A DNA stretch of 51,945 bases from a plasmid. Positions 6,155 to 44,742 of this stretch are shown here, one piece after another. The stretch lies in sequence record NZ_CP027240.1. One strand, written 5' to 3'. Position 1 is the stretch's first letter. Each line of letters starts with the position of its first letter. Both the position numbers and the translations under genes were made by a program. Below the pieces are notes generated by a model. The model ran no database searches, had not been told where the DNA came from, and saw only the letters and a program-made list of their open reading frames with translations.

Positions 6155-7015
6155 TCACGCGGCCTGAGGGGCCTCATGGTTGATGATGGTCTCGTATTCG
6201 ATCGGGGTCAATCTGCCGAGGCGGTCCTGCCGTCTGCGGCGGTGGTAGGTGCGTTCGATCCAGTGCACGATGGCAGCCCGGAGCTCGTCTCTGGTGGCCC
6301 AGGATCGGCGGTCAAGGACGTTGTTCTGCAGCAGCGAAAAGAAGCTCTCCATGGCCGCGTTGTCACCGCACGCGCCGACTCTGCCCATCGACCCGAGCAT
6401 GCCGTGTCGCCGGATGGCCTTCTGCATCTTCTTCGAGCGAAATTGAGATCCTCTATCGCTGTGCAGGATGCAACCGGTCACCTCGCCCCGCCTGGCGACA
6501 GCGCTGTTCAGAGCGTTGACCGCCAGGCGGGACTTCATTCGCGCATCGATCGAATACCCGACGATCCGTCCCGAGTAGACGTCCTTGATCGCACACAGGT
6601 AGAGCTTGCCCTGGCCGGTGCGGTGCTCGGTGATGTCGGTCAGCCACAGCTCGTTCGGACCGTAGGCGGTGAAGTCCCGCTCGACCAAATCGTCGTGTAC
6701 GGGCTCGCCGGCCTTGCGGTGCTTGCCGCGGCCCTTTCGGCTGATGGCGCTGGTCCAGCCACCGGACGAGCAGATCCGCCAAGCGGTTCGCCGGCACATC
6801 TTCTCGCCCGCGGCCTCGGCCTCGTCGGCCAGGTAGCGGTACCCGAACTCCGGGTCTTCGCGGTGGGCATCGAACAGGGCGTTGGCCCGGTACGCCTCGG
6901 CCAGTTCGGCGTCGGTCACGGGCTTTTTGAGCCACCGGTAGTAGGGCTGACGAGCAATTCCGAGTACCCGGCACGTCACCGTGACAGCGATGCCGTCAGC
7001 GGCGAGCTCGTTCAC
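6155..7015 (-). CDS. IS3-family transposase OrfB (DDE integrase core)
   Basis: 286 aa with rve-type DDE motifs (LWLTDITE..., HSDRGSQF...). Overlaps the OrfA stop by GTGA. Confidence 0.9.
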   Translation of the reverse strand: MNELAADGIAVTVTCRVLGIARQPYYRWLKKPVTDAELAEAYRANALFDAHREDPEFGYRYLADEAEAAGEKMCRRTAWRICSSGGWTSAISRKGRGKHRKAGEPVHDDLVERDFTAYGPNELWLTDITEHRTGQGKLYLCAIKDVYSGRIVGYSIDARMKSRLAVNALNSAVARRGEVTGCILHSDRGSQFRSKKMQKAIRRHGMLGSMGRVGACGDNAAMESFFSLLQNNVLDRRSWATRDELRAAIVHWIERTYHRRRRQDRLGRLTPIEYETIINHEAPQAA

Positions 7016-33744: not shown

Positions 33745-33821
33745 CACTTCCCACCCCGACCGATACAGCTATGGCCCCACCTCTTTGGTGGGGCCATAGC
33801 TGTAGGTGTTTGGAGACGATT

Positions 33822-35002: not shown

Positions 35003-38000
35003 ATGAGCCTTCGAGCGGTGCACGCCGGTACTGGATACCAGTACCTGCTGCGCTCGGTCGCCACTCACGACGCCGACCCGCAAGGCATGGCCCTGTCGGA
35101 CTACTACGCCGCCAAGGGCACCCCACCCGGCGCATGGATCGGGCGCGGGCTCGACGGATTGGAATCGGACAACGCGATCGCGGGGGCGGTCGTCACCGAA
35201 GCGCAGATGGCGGCTCTGTACGGCGAGGGCCTGCACCCAGATACCGACCAGATGATGGCCGACGGCCGCAGCCTGTCGGCCTGCAAGCTCGGCCGATCCT
35301 TCCCCATCTACACCGGTGGGGTCGACGTGCTGGAGGCCATCGCTGCGGCCGAAAAGGCGTTCCTTCACACCGAGGGCCGGCGCCCCACCAGCGACGAACG
35401 AGGACAGATCGCCGAGGGGGTCGCGCGCCCGTTCTATACCGAGAAGTTCGGTTACGAACACGCCTCTGGCAAGGATGTCATCGCCTGGGTCAACCGTAAA
35501 CGCGACCAGGTCAAGCAAGCGGTCGCCGGGTTCGACTTCACGTTCTCCCCGGTGAAAAGTGTCAGCGTCTTGTGGGCGCTGGCCGATGAGAAGACTGCCT
35601 CTCGTGTGGCTGCGTTGCATCACGAAGCCGTGGCCGAAACCTTGGCATGGGCCGAGGACAACGCGATCTACACCAGGGTCGGAACGGGCGGCATCAAGCA
35701 GGTTAAGACGGGCGGCATCATCGCGGCTGAGTTCACCCATTTTGACACCCGAGGCGGCGACCCGGACCTGCATTCCCATGTACTGCTGGCCAACAAGGTC
35801 CAAGGCCCTGACGGGCGCTGGCTGTCGCTGGACTCTCGCGCGATCCATCAGATGCACCAGGCGATCTCGGCCCGCTACGACGCGACCCTGCACGACCTTC
35901 TGACCCGCCGTATGGGCGTGGAGTTCCAGGCCCACTACCCGCACCCGGACAAGGCGCCCATCTGGGAGGTCAAGGGCATCGACCGCCGTCTGATCGACGC
36001 CTTCTCCTCCCGCCGGGCCCTGGCCAGGCCGGTCTATGACCGACTCGTCGCGCAGTACGTTGAGAAGAACAATCGGCAGCCTTCCCAGCGGGCGTCCTAC
36101 GCCCTGTGGCAGAAGGCCATCCTCGACACCCGTGACGCCAAGAAGCCCGCCCAATCCCTGGCCGAACACCGCGCCACCTGGCGGGAGATGGCCGAACAGG
36201 CTGTGGGCACGCACGCGGTGGATAGCGTGGTTGGCGAGGTCACCGGGCAGGGTCGGAGCCAGGTGTCGCGGGAGCTGTTCGACGCCCAGGTCCACGCCCG
36301 CCTGGTGGCCGAGCGGGCGGTGGCGGCGGTGACCGCACGGCGGGCGCAGTTCCGCCGTTCCCACATCGAGACCGCCGTATTGGCCGCGCTCAAGGGTTAC
36401 CGATTCGAGGGCGCCGAGGCCCTGGACCGGGCGCACGAACAGGTCATGGCTACCGCTATGAACGAGATCGTGGTGCAGCTGACCCCGCCGGAGATTCTGG
36501 ACCTGCCGGGTGCGTTGACCGGGCCGGAAGGTGCCGGCATTGACCGGCACGCAAACGCCGAGAAGTACACCACTCAGGCAGTGCTGGACGCCGAGACCGC
36601 CACCCTGGAGGCGACTGGAACCCCGGTCGCTGTGATCGCTACCCGCGCCGATCTCGACCGTGCGCTGAAGGCGCACGAGGACGCCGAGGGTTGGTCCCTC
36701 AATGCCGGCCAGACCGCTCTGGCGCAGCACCTCATTGGTGCCGGAACGCTCCTGGCCGCCGGGGTGGGTCCGGCCGGGACCGGCAAGACCGCATCTATGA
36801 AGGTCGTGGCCCGCACCTGGCAACACACCGGCCGGTCGGTTGTCGGCCTTGCTCCTTCCGCGGCAGCGGCCAGCGTCCTCGCGGGCGACATCGGCACCGA
36901 CTGTCACACTATCGACTCTCTGACCTTCACCTGGATGGGCAAGCACCCCACCCTGCCCGGAAAGACTCTCGACGCGTTGCCCGTGATGATCCGCCCTGGC
37001 GACATGCTTCTGGTCGATGAGGCGGGCATGGCCAGCACCGAGAACCTGGCCGCGCTGACTGAGATCGCCGCCGAATCTGGGGCCATTCTCCGCCTGATCG
37101 GCGACCCCAAGCAGCTCGCTGCTGTCGAGACTGGCGGTCTGTTCGCCGACCTGGCCAGCACCCCAGGGACGCCTCAGCTGCGGGAGGTGATGCGCATGGG
37201 CGCAGACACCGACCAAGCCGGCGCGACCCTCGCTCTCCGCGAAGGCGATCCCGGCGCCCTGGACCTCTACAACGAGCGCGGATGGATCATCGGCGGGCAC
37301 CGGGAGCAGATGCTCACCCAGGCCGCCCAGGCGTTCCTGGCCGACACCACCGCGGGCCGACAGTCGCTGATCATCGCCTCCACCAACACCGACGTCGACA
37401 CCCTCAACGAAGTGATCCGCTCGAGCCGCATCGCCCACGGACTGGTCGACGACGCACACACCACCAGGGTCGCTCGCGGGGACACCGTGGGTGTCGGCGA
37501 CACCGTGATCGCCCGCACCAACTCCACGCTGTATTCCGATGACCGCACCTACCTCGGTCGGGTCATCAACGGACAGTTGTTCACCGTCACCGGCATCGCA
37601 GGCGACGGCTCACTTGGGGTGCGCGACTCCTCCACCGGGCAGGCCATGCTCATCCCCGCCAGCTACGCCGACAAGAGCATTCATCTCGGTTACGCGGCCA
37701 CCATCCACCGCGCGCAGGGCGCCACCGTCGATACCGTCCACGCCGTCATCGACGCTGGCGTGGATCGTGCCGGCCTGTACGTCGCCATGACCCGCGGCAG
37801 ACGAGAAAACCGCGCCTACGCCGTATGTGAACCCGTCCTCGACACGGGCGCCGAGGATGCGCACATGCACTCCGCCGGCGACCACCAAGCCCCAACACCC
37901 ACGCAGGTGCTCACTGGCGTTCTGGCCCGCGAGACGCACCAGGCCTCGGCCACCGAAACCCTCCGCCAGGAGTACGCCAGCGCCACCAGCGACGAACGAC

Positions 38001-38542
38001 TGGAGCAGCTCTACCGCCACGGCGTTGATTTAGCCGCCCGCGATTTTGCCGCCGCCACCCTCCCTGCCTACATCGACGCACTCCCCCGTGCCTTGGCCCA
38101 CCAGCTCGAGGCAGACCCCGACCAGTGCCAGGCCCTGGAAGGCGCGTGGACCGAAGCAGCAACCAGGGGCCTCGACCCCCGCGAGGAATGGGACAACGCC
38201 ACCGAAACCCTCGACACCGCCAACAAGCCCGGCACCGTCATCGCCCACCGGATACGTCACGCGACCGGTGAGACCACCGACACCACCACCCTGCCCACTC
38301 CCCCACCCGCGGCCCCGGAATGCGACACCGAACTGACCACCTGGCTTGCAGAAACCCATCGCACACTCACCGCCGATCCTGCCGCCCAGGCGATAGCCCC
38401 TGCCGCTTCCTTCACTGCCGAGGACTTTGTCGCCTCCTACCTCGCATCCCGGTCCGCAGAACACGAACCCGGCCCGGACACCCACCCCACGACGAGCTCG
38501 CCATGGGGGCCATCACCCGACTTCTCCCCCGACCTGTGGTGA
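35003..38542 (+). CDS. MOBF-family conjugative relaxase/helicase (TrwC/TraA-like: N-terminal relaxase domain + C-terminal RecD-like helicase)
   Basis: N-terminal TrwC-type relaxase region with catalytic Tyr context and HxH-type His cluster (HFDTRGGDPDLHSHVLL). Walker A GVGPAGTGKT, DEAGM Walker B, C-terminal UvrD-like helicase motifs. Confidence 0.85.
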   Translation: MSLRAVHAGTGYQYLLRSVATHDADPQGMALSDYYAAKGTPPGAWIGRGLDGLESDNAIAGAVVTEAQMAALYGEGLHPDTDQMMADGRSLSACKLGRSFPIYTGGVDVLEAIAAAEKAFLHTEGRRPTSDERGQIAEGVARPFYTEKFGYEHASGKDVIAWVNRKRDQVKQAVAGFDFTFSPVKSVSVLWALADEKTASRVAALHHEAVAETLAWAEDNAIYTRVGTGGIKQVKTGGIIAAEFTHFDTRGGDPDLHSHVLLANKVQGPDGRWLSLDSRAIHQMHQAISARYDATLHDLLTRRMGVEFQAHYPHPDKAPIWEVKGIDRRLIDAFSSRRALARPVYDRLVAQYVEKNNRQPSQRASYALWQKAILDTRDAKKPAQSLAEHRATWREMAEQAVGTHAVDSVVGEVTGQGRSQVSRELFDAQVHARLVAERAVAAVTARRAQFRRSHIETAVLAALKGYRFEGAEALDRAHEQVMATAMNEIVVQLTPPEILDLPGALTGPEGAGIDRHANAEKYTTQAVLDAETATLEATGTPVAVIATRADLDRALKAHEDAEGWSLNAGQTALAQHLIGAGTLLAAGVGPAGTGKTASMKVVARTWQHTGRSVVGLAPSAAAASVLAGDIGTDCHTIDSLTFTWMGKHPTLPGKTLDALPVMIRPGDMLLVDEAGMASTENLAALTEIAAESGAILRLIGDPKQLAAVETGGLFADLASTPGTPQLREVMRMGADTDQAGATLALREGDPGALDLYNERGWIIGGHREQMLTQAAQAFLADTTAGRQSLIIASTNTDVDTLNEVIRSSRIAHGLVDDAHTTRVARGDTVGVGDTVIARTNSTLYSDDRTYLGRVINGQLFTVTGIAGDGSLGVRDSSTGQAMLIPASYADKSIHLGYAATIHRAQGATVDTVHAVIDAGVDRAGLYVAMTRGRRENRAYAVCEPVLDTGAEDAHMHSAGDHQAPTPTQVLTGVLARETHQASATETLRQEYASATSDERLEQLYRHGVDLAARDFAAATLPAYIDALPRALAHQLEADPDQCQALEGAWTEAATRGLDPREEWDNATETLDTANKPGTVIAHRIRHATGETTDTTTLPTPPPAAPECDTELTTWLAETHRTLTADPAAQAIAPAASFTAEDFVASYLASRSAEHEPGPDTHPTTSSPWGPSPDFSPDLW

Positions 38543-38570
38543 CTCGCCCCTGCTCGTCAGGCCCCAGTGG

Positions 38571-40580
38571 TCAGGCTGCGGTGCGGGCCCATTGGTGCGG
38601 GGCCAGCAGCATGTCGGGGGCGGGCAGTGCGGCGCGGGCTGCGGCAACTAGTTCCCACCAGCTGTCGGGATCGGCCTCGCGATGGCAATCTTGGGCAGCC
38701 ATCGCCGCACCCCAGGTGGTGGCTGATACTGGCGGGCCGGTGGCGGCGGCGCCGTAGGCCAGGGCGATGTCGGTCGGGTGGATCTGCTCCGCCTCATCAG
38801 GATTGGGAAACTCGCCCCACTCGGCCAACGCGTCAGAGCGCTCTGGCTGCTGCCGGGTGGTGAACCACCACACGAACACCGCCGAATGCAGCCGGTACAG
38901 GCGCACCCGGTCGGCGTGCGCACCGTCGACACCAGCAGCAACAGCGGCTCGCGCTAACCGGGAACGACTCCGGTACACCCGGCCATCCGCGGTGCACAGC
39001 CCGAACGAGCGCAGTGCGCGCAGTTTGCTGCGCACCGTCGCCGGACAGATCCCCAGCCTGGTCGCCAGCTCACGCACCGATGCGCGACCAGCGGCCAAGT
39101 GTGTCCACACGCGCATGCCCAACACCCCCAGGGTGCGGGCGTGCCAAATGTCCTCCCGGGCGCATTCGAGCTCAGCGTCAAGCTGGCGCTGCATCTCTGG
39201 AGTAAATACTGCGCCACTTCTTTGCTCCCCGCCCCCTGGTCTCACGATCCGCCACACTGCCGCCCACGGGCCGACTGCTCGCTGCACGCGGGCGACCCAC
39301 CCCTGCTGGCACAGGACTTTGAGTCGGTCGGCGACGGTGTCTCTGGTCAGGCCGGCGGCGAGGGCCCAGTCGCGCTCGGACAGGTGCACCTCGCTAGCCG
39401 CGGCTGCGAGGGTGCGTGCTGCCAGTGCCAGGAGCACCAGGCGGTCCTGGGCTCCTGTCTTGCCGGCCCACCGGCAGGGCTGAGCGTCCATACGGGTGAG
39501 CAGGTCGGCGACAGCGGCCTCGGCAGTTCGGCGGGCGGGTGAGGGTCCTGCAGTGCTGCGGTGGGTGTAGCTGGCTGCGGTGACGGCTTTGGCCCACTGG
39601 CGGGCCAACTCAGCTGCCGCGTCGAATCGGGGTGCGCGCTCCCCCGCACTGGTGCGGTGGGTGCGGACAAACTCCAACCCGGGCCAACGGGCGGTGAAAG
39701 CGGCCTCGTGCACGTCGCGGTACTGCATCCGGGCGTGGGCGCAGGCCAACAGGATCGACCACCCCACCGCGGAGGCATCCGTGCGGTCGGTGATCGGGGC
39801 GCGGGCAAGGGCACGAATCTGTGGGTTCAGGGGGCGTTTGGGCCCGGAGAGGCACGGATGACCTTGCACATCAACGTGCACAGGAACCGGCGCGATCCCA
39901 GCACCGGCGGTGGCTCTGCTGCTGGCTTGAGGGAGTTGTGTCAGGTGCGTGAGTACGGTGCGCAAGGCCCGCAGGGACACCGGGCGAATATGAGGATCCG
40001 TCAGGGGCATCGATGTGCCGCCGGCGCGGTGGGGCGAGCCCGGGGCGCGGACACAACCCGTGCGCGAATTAGCCAGCGGGCCCCGATCCAGCGAGGGCCA
40101 CACGGCGCAGAAAGCGTCGAAGATCGGTGCCAGGCGCTGCGCGGAGACGGCGGTGCTCAACCGGATCCACACGTGGTATCCCCCACCAGGTCCTGACGAG
40201 CACACCAGATGCTCGATGCCCGCGGCAGTCAAGGCAGCCGTGCACGCTGCGAGGTCTCTGTCCGCGGTTGAGCCGGCACGGTGGGCGTCAAAATCCAGGG
40301 CGAGGAGCCGAAACTTGCCCGATTCATCGGCTAGGTGCAGCGCGAAAGGTGTCCCCTCCCCCGGCGCGCCGTCGGTGAGGCGCCTGGTGGCGGCGAAGGT
40401 ATGCGCTTTGCGGGAGTCGACACGCACATACGGACGCGGACTCCACGCGCACACCACAGAGTCCCACCACCAGGTGGGATCGAGAGGTATGAGGTTGTCG
40501 CGGTCAGAGCGAGACACGCCGACCGGATCGACTGGACCATCCGATGGGTATGACTTACTCTGAGAGGTGCCTGGAAGCAC
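38571..40580 (-). CDS. Plasmid replication initiator with archaeo-eukaryotic primase (Prim-Pol) domain
   Basis: LLALDFDAH (DxD) and GGGYHVWIRL (h-H-h) Prim-Pol motifs in the N-terminal third. Located next to par genes and iterons. Confidence 0.6.
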   Translation of the reverse strand: MLPGTSQSKSYPSDGPVDPVGVSRSDRDNLIPLDPTWWWDSVVCAWSPRPYVRVDSRKAHTFAATRRLTDGAPGEGTPFALHLADESGKFRLLALDFDAHRAGSTADRDLAACTAALTAAGIEHLVCSSGPGGGYHVWIRLSTAVSAQRLAPIFDAFCAVWPSLDRGPLANSRTGCVRAPGSPHRAGGTSMPLTDPHIRPVSLRALRTVLTHLTQLPQASSRATAGAGIAPVPVHVDVQGHPCLSGPKRPLNPQIRALARAPITDRTDASAVGWSILLACAHARMQYRDVHEAAFTARWPGLEFVRTHRTSAGERAPRFDAAAELARQWAKAVTAASYTHRSTAGPSPARRTAEAAVADLLTRMDAQPCRWAGKTGAQDRLVLLALAARTLAAAASEVHLSERDWALAAGLTRDTVADRLKVLCQQGWVARVQRAVGPWAAVWRIVRPGGGEQRSGAVFTPEMQRQLDAELECAREDIWHARTLGVLGMRVWTHLAAGRASVRELATRLGICPATVRSKLRALRSFGLCTADGRVYRSRSRLARAAVAAGVDGAHADRVRLYRLHSAVFVWWFTTRQQPERSDALAEWGEFPNPDEAEQIHPTDIALAYGAAATGPPVSATTWGAAMAAQDCHREADPDSWWELVAAARAALPAPDMLLAPHQWARTAA

Positions 40581-40640
40581 AGCTCTCCTAATTGGTGAGC
40601 AACACCGAGTTTGAGCGCCAACTCAGACTCTTGACTTTCG

Positions 40641-40670
40641 ATACCGGCCCACTCGCCAGTGGGCCGGTAT
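40641..40670. other. Perfect 13-bp stem / 4-nt loop hairpin ATACCGGCCCACT-CGCC-AGTGGGCCGGTAT between the RHH gene and rep. Candidate ssi/ori or attenuator element.
   Basis: Seen directly. Not followed by a U-run on either strand, so not a canonical intrinsic terminator. Confidence 0.4.
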
Positions 40671-40726
40671 CAGTCATTTCAGGTGCTGCATGGAGTGTTC
40701 AGTTTTCAGTCAGGCAGCTGGCTACT

Positions 40727-40942
40727 TCACGCGGGAATCGCCTCCTGGTCGTCGTAGCTCGACACGGCTTCAGACATGCCGAGGTGTGCCGCTGCGACCT
40801 CGGCTACGTACTGGTTCATTGAGATGCCACGGGCTGCCGCTTCACGTCGAAGCGCGTCGTAGACATCTGAAGGTACGCGGACTGTCATTCGTGTCCGCTC
40901 CCCTAGCGCTGGTCTCCCAGGCCCAGATCGTGTGGTCGCCAT
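40727..40942 (-). CDS. Ribbon-helix-helix (CopG/Arc/MetJ-type) DNA-binding protein upstream of rep
   Basis: VRVPSDVYDALRREAAARGISMNQYVAEV RHH fold signature. Confidence 0.7.
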   Translation of the reverse strand: MATTRSGPGRPALGERTRMTVRVPSDVYDALRREAAARGISMNQYVAEVAAAHLGMSEAVSSYDDQEAIPA

Positions 40943-41005
40943 GACGTCAAAAATGGCATGCCTGACGTCAAAAATGCGCGCGACACGCGCAAGGCGTCAA
41001 ACATG
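40942..41005. repeat. Three iteron-like direct repeats TGACGTCAAAAATG (x2) and GGCGTCAAACATG, each containing or derived from the palindrome TGACGTCA. Spaced 21 and 30 bp apart and abutting the RHH gene start.
   Basis: Seen directly at 40942-40955, 40963-40976, 40993-41005. Confidence 0.7.
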
Positions 41006-41069
41006 CCGCGAGCGGCGCCCTCGAGGACCGACGCGCCTTGGAGGTCGGGTCACTCCCCAATCAGCTGGC

Positions 41070-41369
41070 TCAACACCCCTTTGACTCCAAGTACTCGACG
41101 ATGGCCTTGTCGGTGATAGAAGCAATGCTGATGGTGCGGTCGCCAGTTTCGTAGCGGAGCTTGTCTACTGCACGTAATAGACGCGCTTTAGTGGACGGGC
41201 GAAGCCGTACGTTGTGCTGCTCTGTCAGTCGCTCTTCTTCAGCTGAGCCGCCTGGCGCGGAAGCCGGGGGCGTGGGAATAGCTGGTGGCTTAGTTCGTGA
41301 AGGCCTCTCAGGCAGGTCTGCTGCAGGATGCACAGCTCGACGGATTGCGGGTTCACGTTCGATGCTCAT
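41070..41369 (-). CDS. ParG-like RHH centromere-binding protein (ParB analog of a type Ib partition system)
   Basis: C-terminal VRLRPSTKARLLRAVDKLRYETGDRTISIASITDKAIVEYL RHH. Translationally coupled (ATGA overlap) to parA. Confidence 0.6.
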   Translation of the reverse strand: MSIEREPAIRRAVHPAADLPERPSRTKPPAIPTPPASAPGGSAEEERLTEQHNVRLRPSTKARLLRAVDKLRYETGDRTISIASITDKAIVEYLESKGC

Positions 41370-42148
41370 GCTGCAGCTCCTTTGGGGCCAAGCGCTAGCT
41401 CTGCTAGCAGATCTGTATACGCGACCTGGAGGGCTAGGGCCTTTCCGCCGGTGAAGCTATGGATCGGTGTGTGCGAGCTATGTGCGTCCTGGCGTGCGGT
41501 TAGCTCCGGGATTGAGGTCTTAGCCACCAAGTCCCCGTACGTGTCGCGAAGTTCACGCTCGCGGAATTGGTGTTCGCCGGTTGTTCTCTTGCGGCTCAGG
41601 ACGAGCTTTTCGAGCACGAGGTGCGGGTTGGGTCGCCTCTGGACGTTACGGATAGTCTCTTGCAGGTTTTCAATCCCGCGGACACTGTCAATGGTCGGCT
41701 CAGTGACAGCGATGACTCCGTCTGCTGCGCAAAGCACGGCGAAGAGGAGCTTCCCCAGAGATGGTGGGCAGTCAAATAGGACCGCGTCGTAGGCGGACAG
41801 GTCGAGCCCCTCGAATGCGATGTCGAGGCGGAAGATGAGGTCATTGGCGCCGTCAGATTCGATGTTCGCCAGCGCTTCGTTGGATGGGATGAGATCCACT
41901 TTGTCCCATGGAGTTGCGATGACTGCGTCGGCTGCCGACCCCGGGACCGTTCGGTTCATGAGGTCGAATGTCGTCATCATGGTCTCCGTCAATTCGACAC
42001 CGAGGCCCGTCGTGGAGTTGCCCTGAGGATCGACGTCCACCACTAGAACGTTGCGTCCTTGATGGCTTAGCGCACTGGCCAAGCCCAGCGTTGTAGCAGT
42101 TTTGCCGACGCCGCCCTTCTGGTTGCAGAGAGCCAGTTTTCGAGTCAA
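41366..42148 (-). CDS. parA: ParA-family partition ATPase (small type Ib ParA)
   Basis: Deviant Walker A KGGVGKT. 260 aa. Confidence 0.9.
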   Translation of the reverse strand: MTRKLALCNQKGGVGKTATTLGLASALSHQGRNVLVVDVDPQGNSTTGLGVELTETMMTTFDLMNRTVPGSAADAVIATPWDKVDLIPSNEALANIESDGANDLIFRLDIAFEGLDLSAYDAVLFDCPPSLGKLLFAVLCAADGVIAVTEPTIDSVRGIENLQETIRNVQRRPNPHLVLEKLVLSRKRTTGEHQFRERELRDTYGDLVAKTSIPELTARQDAHSSHTPIHSFTGGKALALQVAYTDLLAELALGPKGAAA

Positions 42149-42400
42149 TGTCCATTCCTCTCCACGAAGGTAGCCGGGCGAAGCTAGCTGTGACGACAGC
42201 TCTAGCGAGCCTAGCTCGAGTAGTAAGACTACCTTGCGTGTCTAGCACAGACTGTGGCAACAACGCTAGCTAAGAAGACTAACTGTGCTTTACAGGCTAT
42301 CAGTGATAGCAAAGCTATGACTGCGGCGCTAGCTATTACGAAGTAACTAGCGTACGGTGCCAAGGCCAACAGGCCCAGTGGAGTGCGGTCGCAATCGGCT

Positions 42401-42655
42401 TCAGTCAAGTAGGTCGAGGTAGGTGCGGCGCGCCTTCATTGCGTGAATGACTTCGGTACTGCCGTCGTCGTAATGCAGAGCGACCAATTCCAGCACTCGG
42501 GCCTGGGAGTCGAATCCAAGCGTGAGGACCCGTTGGGGGTGGTCGTCGTCGAGTGGTCCGGCCAGGAGGGGAGTGGCCAGCGCGGCGAGGATGTCGTTGT
42601 CGCTGATGCCGTGCTTGCGAGCGGATTGCCGGATGATCACGAGGCGGCGGCCCAC
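42401..42655 (-). CDS. brnT: BrnT-like (DUF497) type II toxin
   Basis: KHGIS...RVLTLGF...VIHAMKARR pattern resembling BrnT. Overlaps the upstream RHH-protein gene. Confidence 0.5.
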   Translation of the reverse strand: MGRRLVIIRQSARKHGISDNDILAALATPLLAGPLDDDHPQRVLTLGFDSQARVLELVALHYDDGSTEVIHAMKARRTYLDLLD

Positions 42656-42894
42656 TGGGCCAGCGCCTGACGGATCGCCTCGGACCGGTTGAGGTGCTCG
42701 CGTTCAGCACGAGCCATGACGGCCCCAAGCTCGGCGTCAGTAAGGCGGACCGGCACGACCTTCGCTGCGTGTTCGGCTCGCGCCGGGCGGCCAAGGCGCT
42801 TGCCCAACCACTCGGGGTCGTAGCCAGTTTCGGCTTCATCGACCCACTGGGCGATCTGCTCCTCGGAAACGTTGTGGCCCTGAATCTTCCGCTC
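42637..42894 (-). CDS. brnA: BrnA-like RHH antitoxin
   Basis: C-terminal VPVRLTDAELGAVMARAEREHLNRSEAIRQALAQW RHH motif. 19-bp overlap with the toxin gene. Confidence 0.5.
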   Translation of the reverse strand, partial: ERKIQGHNVSEEQIAQWVDEAETGYDPEWLGKRLGRPARAEHAAKVVPVRLTDAELGAVMARAEREHLNRSEAIRQALAQWAAAS

Positions 42895-43144
42895 CATGAA
42901 CACAATCGTAATACGAATACCTGGCCAGGGGAAGGAACGCACTGGGGTCAGCCAAGCGACGGGTTTGTTAGGTACCCGGGTCCTTCGGCTCTCGCCCGAA
43001 CCCCGGCTCAACATCATCGCGGCCGAAAGCGTCGACCAGGACCGCCCCGGGCCCTGCTAGCGAGCACCGGCCACACCTGTCGAGACGCTAACAGCGACCA
43101 CAGGTGCATTTGGTTTTGACCAGCAGTGACGACAGAATCTGACA

Positions 43145-43321
43145 TTATCGGCACATCCCGTCGTTACTCAGCGTGAACTCGACCGGTTCGCCCACGGTGA
43201 TCTCCAGCTCTACCTCGCCCGACCGAACCTTGTCGCTGTAGATCGCGGTCTGGCCGAACTTGCATGGCTCTCCGCTCGGGCTCGTATCGCAGATCATCGG
43301 GTCAGCCGAGGAAGAGGGCTC
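43145..43321 (-). pseudogene. 3' part (59 codons, ...CKFGQTAIYSDKVRSGEVELEITVGEPVEFTLSNDGMCR*) of the gene whose 5' part is 148..483, separated by IS256-mediated linearisation
   Basis: In-frame continuation of the 148..483 ORF when 154..161 is joined to 43322..43329 (shared CGCTCCTT). Protein-like composition. Stop at 43145. Confidence 0.45.
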
Positions 43322-43329
43322 CGCTCCTT

Positions 43330-44742
43330 GGTCAAGTCCCAGGTAGTGGTGTATCGCCTGTGATCCTTCGTAGGGGTTAGGCGCTGAGTTCGAGGACGGG
43401 GTCGGTGCTCACCTCCGTCGTCGTGTCGGTCACTGGAGCGAGTCGGCAGCGGGCGAGGACTTCGAGGCCGAGGTAGCGGCGGCCTTCGGCCCATTCGTCG
43501 GTCTGTTCGGCCAGCACGGCCCCGACGAGGCGAACGATGGCCTGCCGGTTGGGGAAGATGCCCACGGCGTCGGTGCGGCGCCGGATCTCCTTGTTCAGCC
43601 GCTCGGAGGGGTTGTTGGACCAGATCTGGGTCCAGACGTCCTTGGGGAAGGCGGTGAAGGCCAGGATGTCGGCGCGGGCGGCGTCGAGGTGCTCGGCCAC
43701 CGCCGGCAGCTTGGCGGCCACGTAGTCCAGCAGCCGGTCGAACTGGGCGTGCACCGCGGCGGCGTCGGGCTGGTCGTAGACCGAGTGCAGCATCGCCTTG
43801 ACCGCCGGCCACATCGACTTCGGGGTCACGCTCATGAGGTTGGCGGCGTAGTGGGTGCGGCAGCGCTGCCAGGTGGCGCCGGGAAGGTTGGCCGCGATGG
43901 CCTCGACGAGGCCGGCGTGCGCGTCTGAGGTCACGAGCCGGACCCCAGCCAGGCCGCGGGCCACGAGGTCGGCGAAGAACTCGTTCCACGCCGCCCCGGT
44001 CTCGGCCGTGGCCACCCGCATGCCCAGGACCTCGCGGTGCCCGTCACCGTTGACACCGGTCGCGATCAGGACCACGGCGTTGATGACCCGCCCGCCCTCG
44101 CGCACCTTCATGGTCAGGGCGTCGGCGGCGACGAACGTGAAGGGTCCGGCCTCGTCGAGGGGCCGGTGGCGGAAGGCCTCGACCTGGGCGTCGAGGTCGG
44201 CGGCCATCCGGGACACCTGCGACTTCGACAGGCTGTTGATGCCCAGCTGCTTGACGAGCTTGTCCATCCGGCGGGTGCTCACCCCGGCCAGATAACAGTC
44301 CGCCACCACCGTGATCAGCGCCGACTCGGCCCGCTTGCGCCGCTCGAGCAGCCACTCGGGGAAGTACGTCCCGGTGCGCAGCTTGGGGATCGCGACGTCG
44401 ATCGTGCCGACCCGGGTGTCCAGGTCGCGGTGCCGGTAGCCGTTGCGCTGCGCGGTCCGGTCCGGGCTGCGTTGGCCCCACTCGGCACCGACCACCGCGT
44501 CGGCGTCGGCGGACAGCAGCGCGTTGATCACCGTCTGCAGCAGGTTGCGCATGAGGTCCGGGGAGGCTTCCGCCAGGGCCTCGCCAAGCAGGCCGGCAGG
44601 GTCGACAATGTGAGGTGCGGTCACCGTGATGCTCCGTTCGAGAGTGCTGTGAAGGGTTCACTCGAAGATCACGCGGTGGCCGCTCCACGTCTACTACGAC
44701 GAGGCCGGCAACCGCGTTACACCATCATCGGGGACTCAACTC
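43330..44742 (-). mobile_element. IS256-family insertion sequence, copy B (complete, ~1413 bp). Imperfect IRs GGTCAAGTCCCAGGTAGTGGTGTATCGC / GAGTTGAGTCCCCGATGATGGTGTAACGC.
   Basis: Ends defined by comparison with copies A and C. Left flank CGCTCCTT (43322-43329). Confidence 0.85.
43377..44624 (-). CDS. IS256-family (Mutator-like) transposase
   Basis: 415 aa with DDE motif typical of IS256 transposases. Three copies or fragments in the window. Confidence 0.9.

Follow-up and report, generated by a model that had tools for sequence, protein, structure and literature searches.

The stretch of DNA analysed here, hereafter the window (51,945 nt; sequence record NZ_CP027240.1), is a plasmid of Dietzia. 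Its region 38500-42200 shares 98.5% identity with D. kunjamensis pDK313-58 and 76-96% with four further Dietzia plasmids. Plasmid pII of Dietzia sp. DQ12-45-1b (NZ_CP046569), a carrier of the module, is 92.6% identical. All genes of the region lie on the minus strand. These are parA, a gene for a 99-aa protein (p99), a gene for a 71-aa ribbon-helix-helix (RHH) protein, and rep, which encodes a putative replication initiator with a primase-polymerase (Prim-Pol) fold. Three short direct repeats lie between p99 and the RHH gene, and a strong hairpin lies between the RHH gene and rep. The original prediction grouped repeats and hairpin as one replication and partition control region, in which the repeats might be an operator, a centromere or an origin and the hairpin a single-strand initiation site used by Rep. 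We consider it somewhat better than an even chance that the region is a two-gene replication operon in which the RHH protein would act on its own operator, formed by the repeats, and the hairpin would belong to a structured leader of rep (Table 1).

The hairpin had been described as a perfect 13-bp stem at 40641-40670, located between the RHH stop codon (40727) and the rep start codon (40580). Its existence and its position stand, but its extent had to be revised. The perfect stem is 14 bp long with a 4-nt loop (40640-40671; a 13-bp stem with a 6-nt loop is the alternative pairing), and TGACT/AGTCA flanks (40632-40636 and 40672-40676) lengthen it further. It is one of two perfect hairpins with a stem of at least 11 bp in the window, and in 30 block shuffles the stem was never longer than 11 bp. 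This hairpin is not free-standing. It forms helix P1 of a conserved 137-nt fold in which P0, P1 and P2 make a three-way junction that is followed by P3, with P0 joining strands that are 75 nt apart. On the coding strand, 40560-40730 folds with a free energy of -72.7 kcal/mol, which corresponds to a z-score of -4.9 against shuffled sequences.

Conservation of this fold was assessed among relatives collected from PLSDB, GTDB genomes and metagenomes. RNAalifold gives a consensus structure for the leader element, and the P0/P1/P2/P3 architecture is the minimum-free-energy fold in all 21 distinct sequences, including four loci whose Rep is 48-60% identical. With a covariance model trained on 15 sequences, 21 loci are found to carry the element, at scores of 61-165 bits. 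In the covariance-model alignment, which is fitted to the model and comprises only 21 related sequences, 98.6% of cells are paired and 11 of 41 base pairs carry double-sided changes, among them four of the five modelled P0 pairs and six of the 18 P1 pairs. None of 500 shuffles matched this covariation, and slid controls reached at most four such pairs and at most 44% paired. Within P1, GATACC/GGTATC is found alongside GATCCC/GGGATC, GATTCC/GGAATC and GAGTCC/GGACTC; CCAC/GTGG is replaced by CCTC/GAGG, the flank can read CGACT/AGTCG, and stem position 4 is A-T, C-G or T-A. P2 varies between T-A/C-G and A-T in relatives. The loop of P3 is variable as well (UCCA, ACCA, GGGA or UCCC). The spacer that holds the element is 146 nt long in the window and 141-151 nt across the subfamily, and it is mostly more conserved than the rep coding sequence (84.9% versus 74.7% in L002, 77.6% versus 68.9% in L106).

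No Rfam family matches the leader fold, and the literature searched yielded no published account of it. A search of 38000-43500 against Rfam 15 returned two chance-level matches, neither of them on the element. The covariance model did not detect the element at loci where Rep is 30-37% identical; these loci carry an RHH gene and a non-homologous GC-rich hairpin before Rep. In the distant relatives L028-L091 (for example L042, L065, L028 and L031), whose hosts include Leifsonia, Microbacterium, Georgenia, Micrococcus and Arthrobacter, the 77-161 nt between the RHH gene and Rep contain a GC-rich hairpin whose stem is 10-13 bp long, with sequences unrelated to P1. Two Rhodococcus loci (L072 and L085), with a Rep about 30% identical, retain a P2-like hairpin (GAGTTAGCCGCTC). 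We rejected the reading of the hairpin as an oriT, as it stays between the RHH gene and Rep in loci without an adjacent relaxase.

Counts of standard pairs favour the coding strand. Such pairs occupy 853 of 877 alignment cells on the coding strand versus 810 of 877 on the plus strand, and an internal G.U pair of P0 is valid on the coding strand only. Several points weigh against the leader, in addition to the small and model-fitted alignment noted above. One internal pair of P1 (alignment columns 34-49) shows a C.A mismatch in 12 of 21 sequences when read on the coding strand, but reads G.U on the opposite one. Mean folding energies are equal for the two strands (-63.2 and -63.3 kcal/mol) and hence uninformative. 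The P3 stem is invariant and therefore draws no support from covariation, and symmetric changes in P1 alone could also come from a palindromic protein-binding site.

The leader element most likely controls Rep expression at the RNA level, after transcription, because the predicted fold sequesters the rep ribosome-binding site. P3 would lock the Shine-Dalgarno sequence and the GTG start codon of rep and would thereby limit Rep synthesis. The three-way junction could serve as the regulatory platform, with an antisense RNA, Rep or ribosome coupling as candidate effectors.

Alternatively, the P1 hairpin, or the whole P0-P2 element, might be the replication origin or a single-strand initiation (ssi) site at which the Prim-Pol/winged-helix Rep primes synthesis. 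The stem-loop would be recognised once extruded or unwound, a role compatible with an RNA function alongside, and covariation cannot tell RNA from single-stranded DNA. Rep has the fold of the archaeo-eukaryotic primases (AEP) and retains the catalytic motifs, and its structural matches include the catalytic domain of RepB' on initiator hairpin DNA (3h25, probability 1.00). The spacer, together with a promoter of about 75 bp, is the sole non-coding DNA that always accompanies Rep, the flanks differing across the family. Only 28 nt lie between the stop codons of rep and of the convergent mobF relaxase gene (end 38542). GC content falls to 52-55% at the RHH-rep control region, a GC-rich hairpin precedes Rep in distant relatives too, and a stem-loop, which has been proposed as the origin, is required for the replication of pRN1 (PMC4234260). 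However, the sequestration of the Shine-Dalgarno sequence and start codon by P3 points to a translational purpose, and long-range helices such as P0 are typical of folded transcripts. The lowest GC content is found upstream of parA and not at the hairpin, and neither AT-rich unwinding elements nor Rep-specific repeats were found nearby. The paired hairpins on opposite strands that mark the two RSF1010 sites are also lacking: the plasmid has a single hairpin, whose arm is unique in the window. We put the chance of an origin here as low.

The plus strand provides a second alternative, in which the hairpin is the terminator of a short antisense RNA that would run from the first rep codons (about 40565-40575) to about 40680. 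Complementary to P1, P2 and the Shine-Dalgarno sequence and start codon of rep, such a transcript would inhibit the translation of Rep. RNAII of pMV158 and the countertranscripts of corynebacterial pGA1-type plasmids are precedents. Directly after the extended stem (TGACT...AGTCA), the plus strand has an unvarying TTT(C/T/G), while the coding strand has no U-tract; the internal P1 pair with the C.A mismatch described above becomes G.U in 20 of 21 sequences when the plus strand is read; and the plus strand folds as stably, with a z-score of -5.6. All relatives have a TAC(T/C)CT hexamer (TANNNT) on the plus strand at 40556-40561, and the first rep codons are without synonymous variation. Both of these last features are explained equally well by the encoded T-S-Q-S/G-K/R peptide and by P3. 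The tail holds three T residues only, and the terminator scan did not call it. Furthermore, P0 and the loop-closing pairs become C.A on the plus strand, which accounts for the lower count of paired cells given above. We assign the antisense RNA a likelihood as small as that of the origin.

It is less probable again that the three-way-junction element is both at once, a new class of cis-regulatory RNA for a bacterial Prim-Pol initiator and the site at which its replication starts. Were this so, a dual-purpose element would define the origin logic of a widespread and uncharacterised family of Actinomycetota plasmids.

The hairpin could also act as an intrinsic terminator or attenuator of the coding strand, ending most RHH transcripts and leaving Rep to be made by read-through only. 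A stable GC-rich stem-loop does stand just after the RHH gene, relatives with other RHH types have an extra hairpin right after the RHH stop codon, and distant relatives have their GC-rich hairpins in the corresponding place, with T4 following that of L065. Yet no U-tract follows on the coding strand (GAAAGTCAAGAG), where the terminator scan made no call, and on the plus strand the stem is followed only by TTTC; the view that the hairpin is not a canonical terminator on the coding strand is thus borne out. Mycobacterial RNA polymerase is reported to need a U-tract for termination. An attenuator would also leave P0, P2, P3 and the fixed spacer length unexplained, and we find it decidedly doubtful. 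Taken together, the structured leader is the best supported of these readings, an antisense RNA and an origin or priming site are possible, and a coding-strand terminator is unlikely.

Upstream of the RHH gene, three direct repeats between p99 and the RHH gene, overlapping the RHH start codon, had been predicted; they lie at 40942-41005 and prove to be non-random. The sequence TGACGTCAAAAATG occurs in two exact copies (the proximal and middle repeats), and a 79% copy, AGGCGTCAAACATG, forms the distal repeat; start-to-start distances are 21 and 29 bp. The repeat 13-mer has three matches with up to two mismatches in the 51.9 kb, all within 64 bp, whereas 0.54 were expected; two of 100 shuffles reach three matches, in a test that does not count their clustering within 64 bp. 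A palindrome, TGACGTCA, had been assigned to every repeat. It is present in the proximal and middle copies but not in the distal one, which is degenerate in this plasmid; in L002, L025 and L021 the distal repeat reads TGACGTCG, and it is absent from L022 and L093. The proximal repeat overlaps the RHH ATG at 40940-40942, where TTTTGACGTCATGG is unchanging across all relatives with the same type of RHH protein (type 1, see below), and the middle repeat is kept in all of them as ATTT(C/T)TGACGTCA, 21 bp upstream of the proximal repeat. Inside this cluster, at 40975-40991 on the minus strand, lies a small terminator-like hairpin (TGCGCGTGTCGCGCGCA followed by TTTTT), which could end parA-p99 transcripts; its pairing is lost in relatives.

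The position of the repeats gains meaning from the start of the RHH gene. Some records begin this gene at an internal ATG, giving a 53-aa product. The 18 N-terminal codons show only synonymous third-position differences from L002 and the 76%-identical pDK58, and residues M1, A2, G9, R10, P11, G14 and R16 (motif M-A-T..G-R-P-x-x-G-x-R) are invariant across types; the ATG at 40942 is therefore taken as the true start. At -13 to -8 of this ATG, all 11 distinct hexamers, from every RHH type, conform to NANNNT (A at position 2, T at position 6). The actinobacterial -10 consensus is TANNNT, and NANNNT keeps its two most conserved positions. As no Shine-Dalgarno sequence precedes the type-1 ATG, we infer a leaderless RHH mRNA that would start at the ATG itself. 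Further upstream, an GCGTGTCG box lies at the same distance (+/-1 nt) in all RHH types despite their differing type-specific repeats, and it may be a promoter or promoter-proximal element, or else a shared factor such as Rep may bind there. Its reading as an iterated Rep site was rejected, with three occurrences in the window, under the chance expectation.

We propose that the 71-aa RHH protein has its operator in the TGACGTCA repeats. They overlap the RHH start codon and the probable -10 and -35 positions of a promoter that is placed from sequence. The proximal and middle copies, 21 bp apart, would lie on one face of the helix and would cover the -10 hexamer with the start site, and the -35 region, respectively. 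The 8-bp palindrome in each exact copy would suit one RHH dimer, and two dimers could bind cooperatively. Once bound, they would block RNA polymerase and so set the transcription of RHH and Rep alike, if the two genes are, as we presume, co-transcribed.

The comparative evidence favours the operator among the options of the original prediction. The relatives collected show a constant block consisting of operator, RHH gene, spacer of about 146 nt and Rep, in which the RHH gene comes in types. Type 1 (ribbon RTRMTVRV) is found in the window and in L002, L016, L018, L021, L022, L025, L027, L093 and L105. Type 2 (ribbon RMRVPVRM) has GGCGCCA direct repeats and a AAAACTCCAC/GTGGGAGTTTT inverted repeat at equivalent positions, its operator motifs being given also as GGCGCCA plus GTGGGAG. 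L108 and L110 carry TCACA/TGTGA motifs, and the ribbons outside type 1 further include TALKVRL. Comparison of a type-1 with a type-2 plasmid gives 90.3% identity for Rep and 91-93% for its winged-helix domains, but the repeats are entirely different. The overlap of the proximal repeat with the ATG holds for all type-1 loci, including those in which an insertion of about 130 nt separates p99 from the repeats. One of these is pDK58, in which the upstream similarity begins exactly at the distal repeat and the register between repeats and ATG is unaltered. The repeats thus change with the RHH type and remain locked to the RHH start codon. In type-2 plasmids (L008 at 6540-6760, L014, L012 and L024), multiple CGGTATA(T/C)ACCG-like repeats lie upstream of the RHH operator, toward a divergent gene for a 191-aa ParA; their half-site resembles the base of P1 (GATACCGG), and they are probably the centromere of that ParA cassette.

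Some observations count against the operator. The type-1 RHH gene always accompanies the same parA-p99 cassette, so that linkage cannot by itself separate the RHH protein from p99 as the binder, and the CTAGC evidence described below is needed to decide between them. L108 and L110 share a common CACA-type motif yet have different ribbons, which makes the link between ribbon and motif imperfect. A sigma-70 promoter scan of 40400-42400 called no promoter, and the -35 region of the proposed RHH promoter has no TTGACA-like match. The scan for promoters and canonical terminators likewise called none in the RHH-rep spacer, and across 40400-42400 the terminator scan called only the 40975-40991 hairpin with its T5 and P2 on the plus strand.

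The 71-aa protein has a ribbon-helix-helix DNA-binding domain. It matches Pfam HicB with 25.5 bits (cut-off 21) and falls below the cut-off for RHH_1 (18.8 versus 20.5 bits) and for the FitA-like, NikA-like and Arc families, and the strand/helix/helix pattern is kept in eight diverse homologues. The name 'HicB family antitoxin' given by PGAP is a naming artefact of the RHH domain: the HicB profile match covers the RHH part only (positions 19-49 of 51), the N-terminal domain of HicB is absent, and the neighbours are p99 and Rep, with no HicA gene. In public annotations (PLSDB records L001-L010) the protein bears this name at 53 or 71 aa, and record L005 omits the gene. In all close relatives, and in many distant ones with a Rep that is 30-37% identical, the gene immediately before rep encodes an RHH protein, so that a small repressor-type gene, co-oriented with rep, is conserved with it as a pair.

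The term iterons, which had been applied to the repeats, is misleading. That three direct repeats lie near the rep gene, and that Rep has two winged-helix DNA-binding domains, would suit Rep-binding iterons of a replication origin. However, the repeats switch with the RHH type while Rep remains about 90% identical (winged-helix domains 91-93%), and the units are short (14 nt), in two good copies only, one of which is fused to the RHH start codon; an iteron origin is very improbable.

The remaining option was that the repeats are a centromere, or a second one, bound by the p99 protein of the parA-p99 cassette. The p99 gene, which directly follows parA with a 4-nt overlap, had been called parG-like. 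The p99 protein has a disordered, proline-rich N-terminus and a C-terminal region of 50 aa that is nearly invariant across plasmids of Mycobacteriales, and its AlphaFold monomer shows a strand-helix-helix topology (helices 58-75 and 82-96). This topology is RHH-like, but Foldseek returned non-significant matches only (pCXC100 ParB, 3no7, E about 5-9), hhalign assigned it a 1% probability of matching the RHH family, and a sequence search of the PDB gave no meaningful match. The resemblance to ParG is accordingly one of predicted architecture, with no significant match in sequence or fold.

Centromeres of type Ib partition systems sit upstream of parA (PMC3074162). At that position the window has its densest cluster of TAGC/GCTA, with 16 in the 250 nt upstream of parA compared with a window mean of 0.86, in a stretch whose GC content of 45-49% is the lowest of 38000-43500. 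CTAGC-type motifs upstream of parA are kept in diverged relatives, and this array is likely to be the type Ib centromere and par operator for p99. For p99 homologues on unrelated contigs of Mycobacterium, Rhodococcus and Nocardia type (L112-L114), CTAGC clusters lie both upstream of parA and shortly after the p99 gene, and TGACGTCA occurs in none of these loci.

The TGACGTCA repeats lie downstream of p99, at a distance of 65 nt, and the type-1 repeats are always found with the parA-p99 cassette; a short motif cluster just downstream of the gene is indeed a feature of p99 homologues. However, that cluster is CTAGC and not TGACGTCA, and the densest CTAGC array already takes the canonical type Ib place upstream of parA (PMC3074162), so the TGACGTCA repeats need not be a centromere. 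The distance from p99 to the repeats ranges from 65 to about 190 nt, while that from the repeats to the RHH ATG is fixed. We regard a centromere made of these repeats as scarcely credible.

Table 1. Features of the control region and neighbouring genes, with positions in the window
Feature	Position	Strand	Description
rep	38571..40580	-	669 aa; N-terminal AEP/Prim-Pol domain, two winged-helix domains, C-terminal region
Structured element	40560..40696	-	RHH-rep spacer and first rep codons; helices P0, P1, P2 and P3
P3	40562..40588	-	rep Shine-Dalgarno GGAGAG (40583-40588) and GTG start (40578-40580) pair with codons 5-7 (ACC TCT CAG)
P0, 3' strand	40599..40606	-	coding strand GGTGTTGC; pairs with 40682-40689
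P2	40607..40630	-	second hairpin, 9-bp stem
P1	40632..40676	-	core 14-bp stem 40640-40671, extended by TGACT/AGTCA across a 3-nt bulge
P0, 5' strand	40682..40689	-	coding strand GCAGCACC; pairs with 40599-40606
RHH gene	40727..40942	-	71 aa; probable autorepressor/copy-control protein of the RHH-rep operon
Proximal repeat	40942..40955	-	coding strand CATTTTTGACGTCA; final A is the A of the RHH ATG; -13 to +1
Candidate -10 hexamer	40950..40955	-	CATTTT; -13 to -8 of the RHH ATG; proposed from sequence
Middle repeat	40963..40976	-	exact copy, 21 bp (two helical turns) from the proximal repeat; -34 to -21
GCGTGTCG box	40981..40988	-	-46 to -39 of the RHH ATG
Distal repeat	40992..41005	-	coding strand CATGTTTGACGCCT; degenerate, without the TGACGTCA palindrome
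p99	41070..41369	-	99 aa; probable type Ib centromere-binding protein; context, outside the rep control element
parA	41366..42148	-	Walker ATPase, 260 aa
CTAGC/GCTAGC array	42171..42351		directly upstream of parA; candidate centromere and par operator

Fold and motifs uphold the description of Rep as a Prim-Pol protein. All of 17 homologues keep D96-F-D98 and SSGPGGGxH136-VW unchanged, and an AlphaFold model based on 17 sequences has a pLDDT of 80-90 over residues 40-215. With this model Foldseek finds the CAPP Prim-Pol 7p9j (E 6.8e-4, probability 1.00) as well as LigD PolDom and S-2L PrimPol (both at probability 1.00) and RSF1010 RepB' (3h25/3h20; probability 0.99-1.00). Pfam matches the two winged-helix domains and gives AEP-TOTE 21.3 bits, under its cut-off of 27; a sequence search of the PDB yielded weak HTH matches only, and no helicase domain was detected in Pfam or in the model. 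A Prim-Pol fold with its catalytic motifs is thus supported by modelling, and primase-polymerase activity and an initiator role are putative. Public annotations (PLSDB records L001-L010) shorten Rep to 385-436 aa, or to 618 aa. Since full-length homologues measure 650-673 aa and are found at identities as low as 45%, the PGAP calls of 385-436 aa are start-site errors. Rep relatives with 26-38% identity occur on at least 205 PLSDB plasmids of Actinomycetota, including those of Rhodococcus, Clavibacter, Curtobacterium and Cutibacterium, and annotated homologues are all 'hypothetical' or 'HTH'. In the literature searched we found no characterised member of the Rep family and nothing specific on the replication of Dietzia plasmids.

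A control scheme made of a repressor and a structured leader is conventional for plasmid copy control, although this plasmid family is unstudied. ORF56 of pRN1 and CopG of pMV158 are precedents for the transcriptional control of an RHH-rep gene pair. In pMV158, a dimer of CopG dimers binds a (pseudo)symmetric element over the single cop-rep promoter, and the cop-rep spacer is the site at which RNAII controls Rep translation post-transcriptionally. The Dietzia region resembles this arrangement in having a proposed repressor operator over a probable promoter and probable control in the spacer before rep. It differs in that Rep of pMV158 is an HUH rolling-circle nuclease and not an AEP protein, that an antisense RNA is hypothetical in the Dietzia plasmid, and that the Dietzia operator would consist of direct repeats, each with an 8-bp palindrome, in front of an mRNA that is probably leaderless.

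The Sulfolobus plasmid pRN1 likewise combines a repressor gene with a Prim-Pol Rep and a conserved stem-loop that goes with the replicon (PMC4234260). Its orf56, for the repressor, and orf904, for Rep, form one transcription unit with an essential upstream promoter (PMC4234260). Unlike the Dietzia protein, in which no helicase was detected, the pRN1 Rep has a superfamily 3 (SF3) helicase. The stem-loop of pRN1, of about 100 nt, lies downstream of rep, whereas the Dietzia fold lies upstream and includes the rep ribosome-binding site. Host and promoter logic are archaeal in pRN1, and the likeness is one of architecture.

Like Rep, RSF1010 RepB' is a plasmid primase with an AEP fold, and in RSF1010 a DNA hairpin is the priming signal, the model that underlies the original prediction for the hairpin. 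RSF1010 has two ssi sites (ssiA and ssiB) on opposite strands within an iteron-type oriV, with a separate RepA helicase and RepC initiator. The Dietzia plasmid differs in having a single hairpin, placed within the rep leader fold, and a Rep with winged-helix domains of its own. For partition, the TP228 ParF/ParG and pCXC100 ParA/ParB systems offer a parallel in which parA is followed by a gene for a small protein with a disordered N-terminus and a strand-helix-helix fold and an array lies upstream of parA. This type Ib likeness concerns the parA-p99 cassette and the CTAGC array, not the TGACGTCA repeats, and p99 has no significant match to ParG or ParB.

A further difference from pRN1 and pMV158 is that cassettes of an RHH gene with its operator have been exchanged in front of a constant leader and Rep. 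This exchange offers an explanation of incompatibility and module swapping in the family. Operator, gene starts and leader together define a testable minimal replicon (about 38540-41010) for Dietzia and Rhodococcus vectors, and the leader is a new RNA or single-stranded-DNA structural motif for family databases. The reach of the Rep family extends to degradative plasmids of Rhodococcus and to plasmids of the plant pathogens Clavibacter and Curtobacterium.

Two further features of the window were noted. Beside the par locus, an overlapping pair of minus-strand genes (42401-42655 and 42637-43017) encodes an 84-aa DUF4258/BrnT-like protein and, upstream of it, an RHH_1 (CopG-family) protein; the pair is probably a toxin-antitoxin stability module. 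The other long perfect hairpin of the window, at 33764-33804 with an 18-bp stem and a 5-nt loop (ATACAGCTATGGCCCCACC...GGTGGGGCCATAGCTGTA), follows closely on a plus-strand stop codon, apparently where two genes converge, and resembles a bidirectional terminator.

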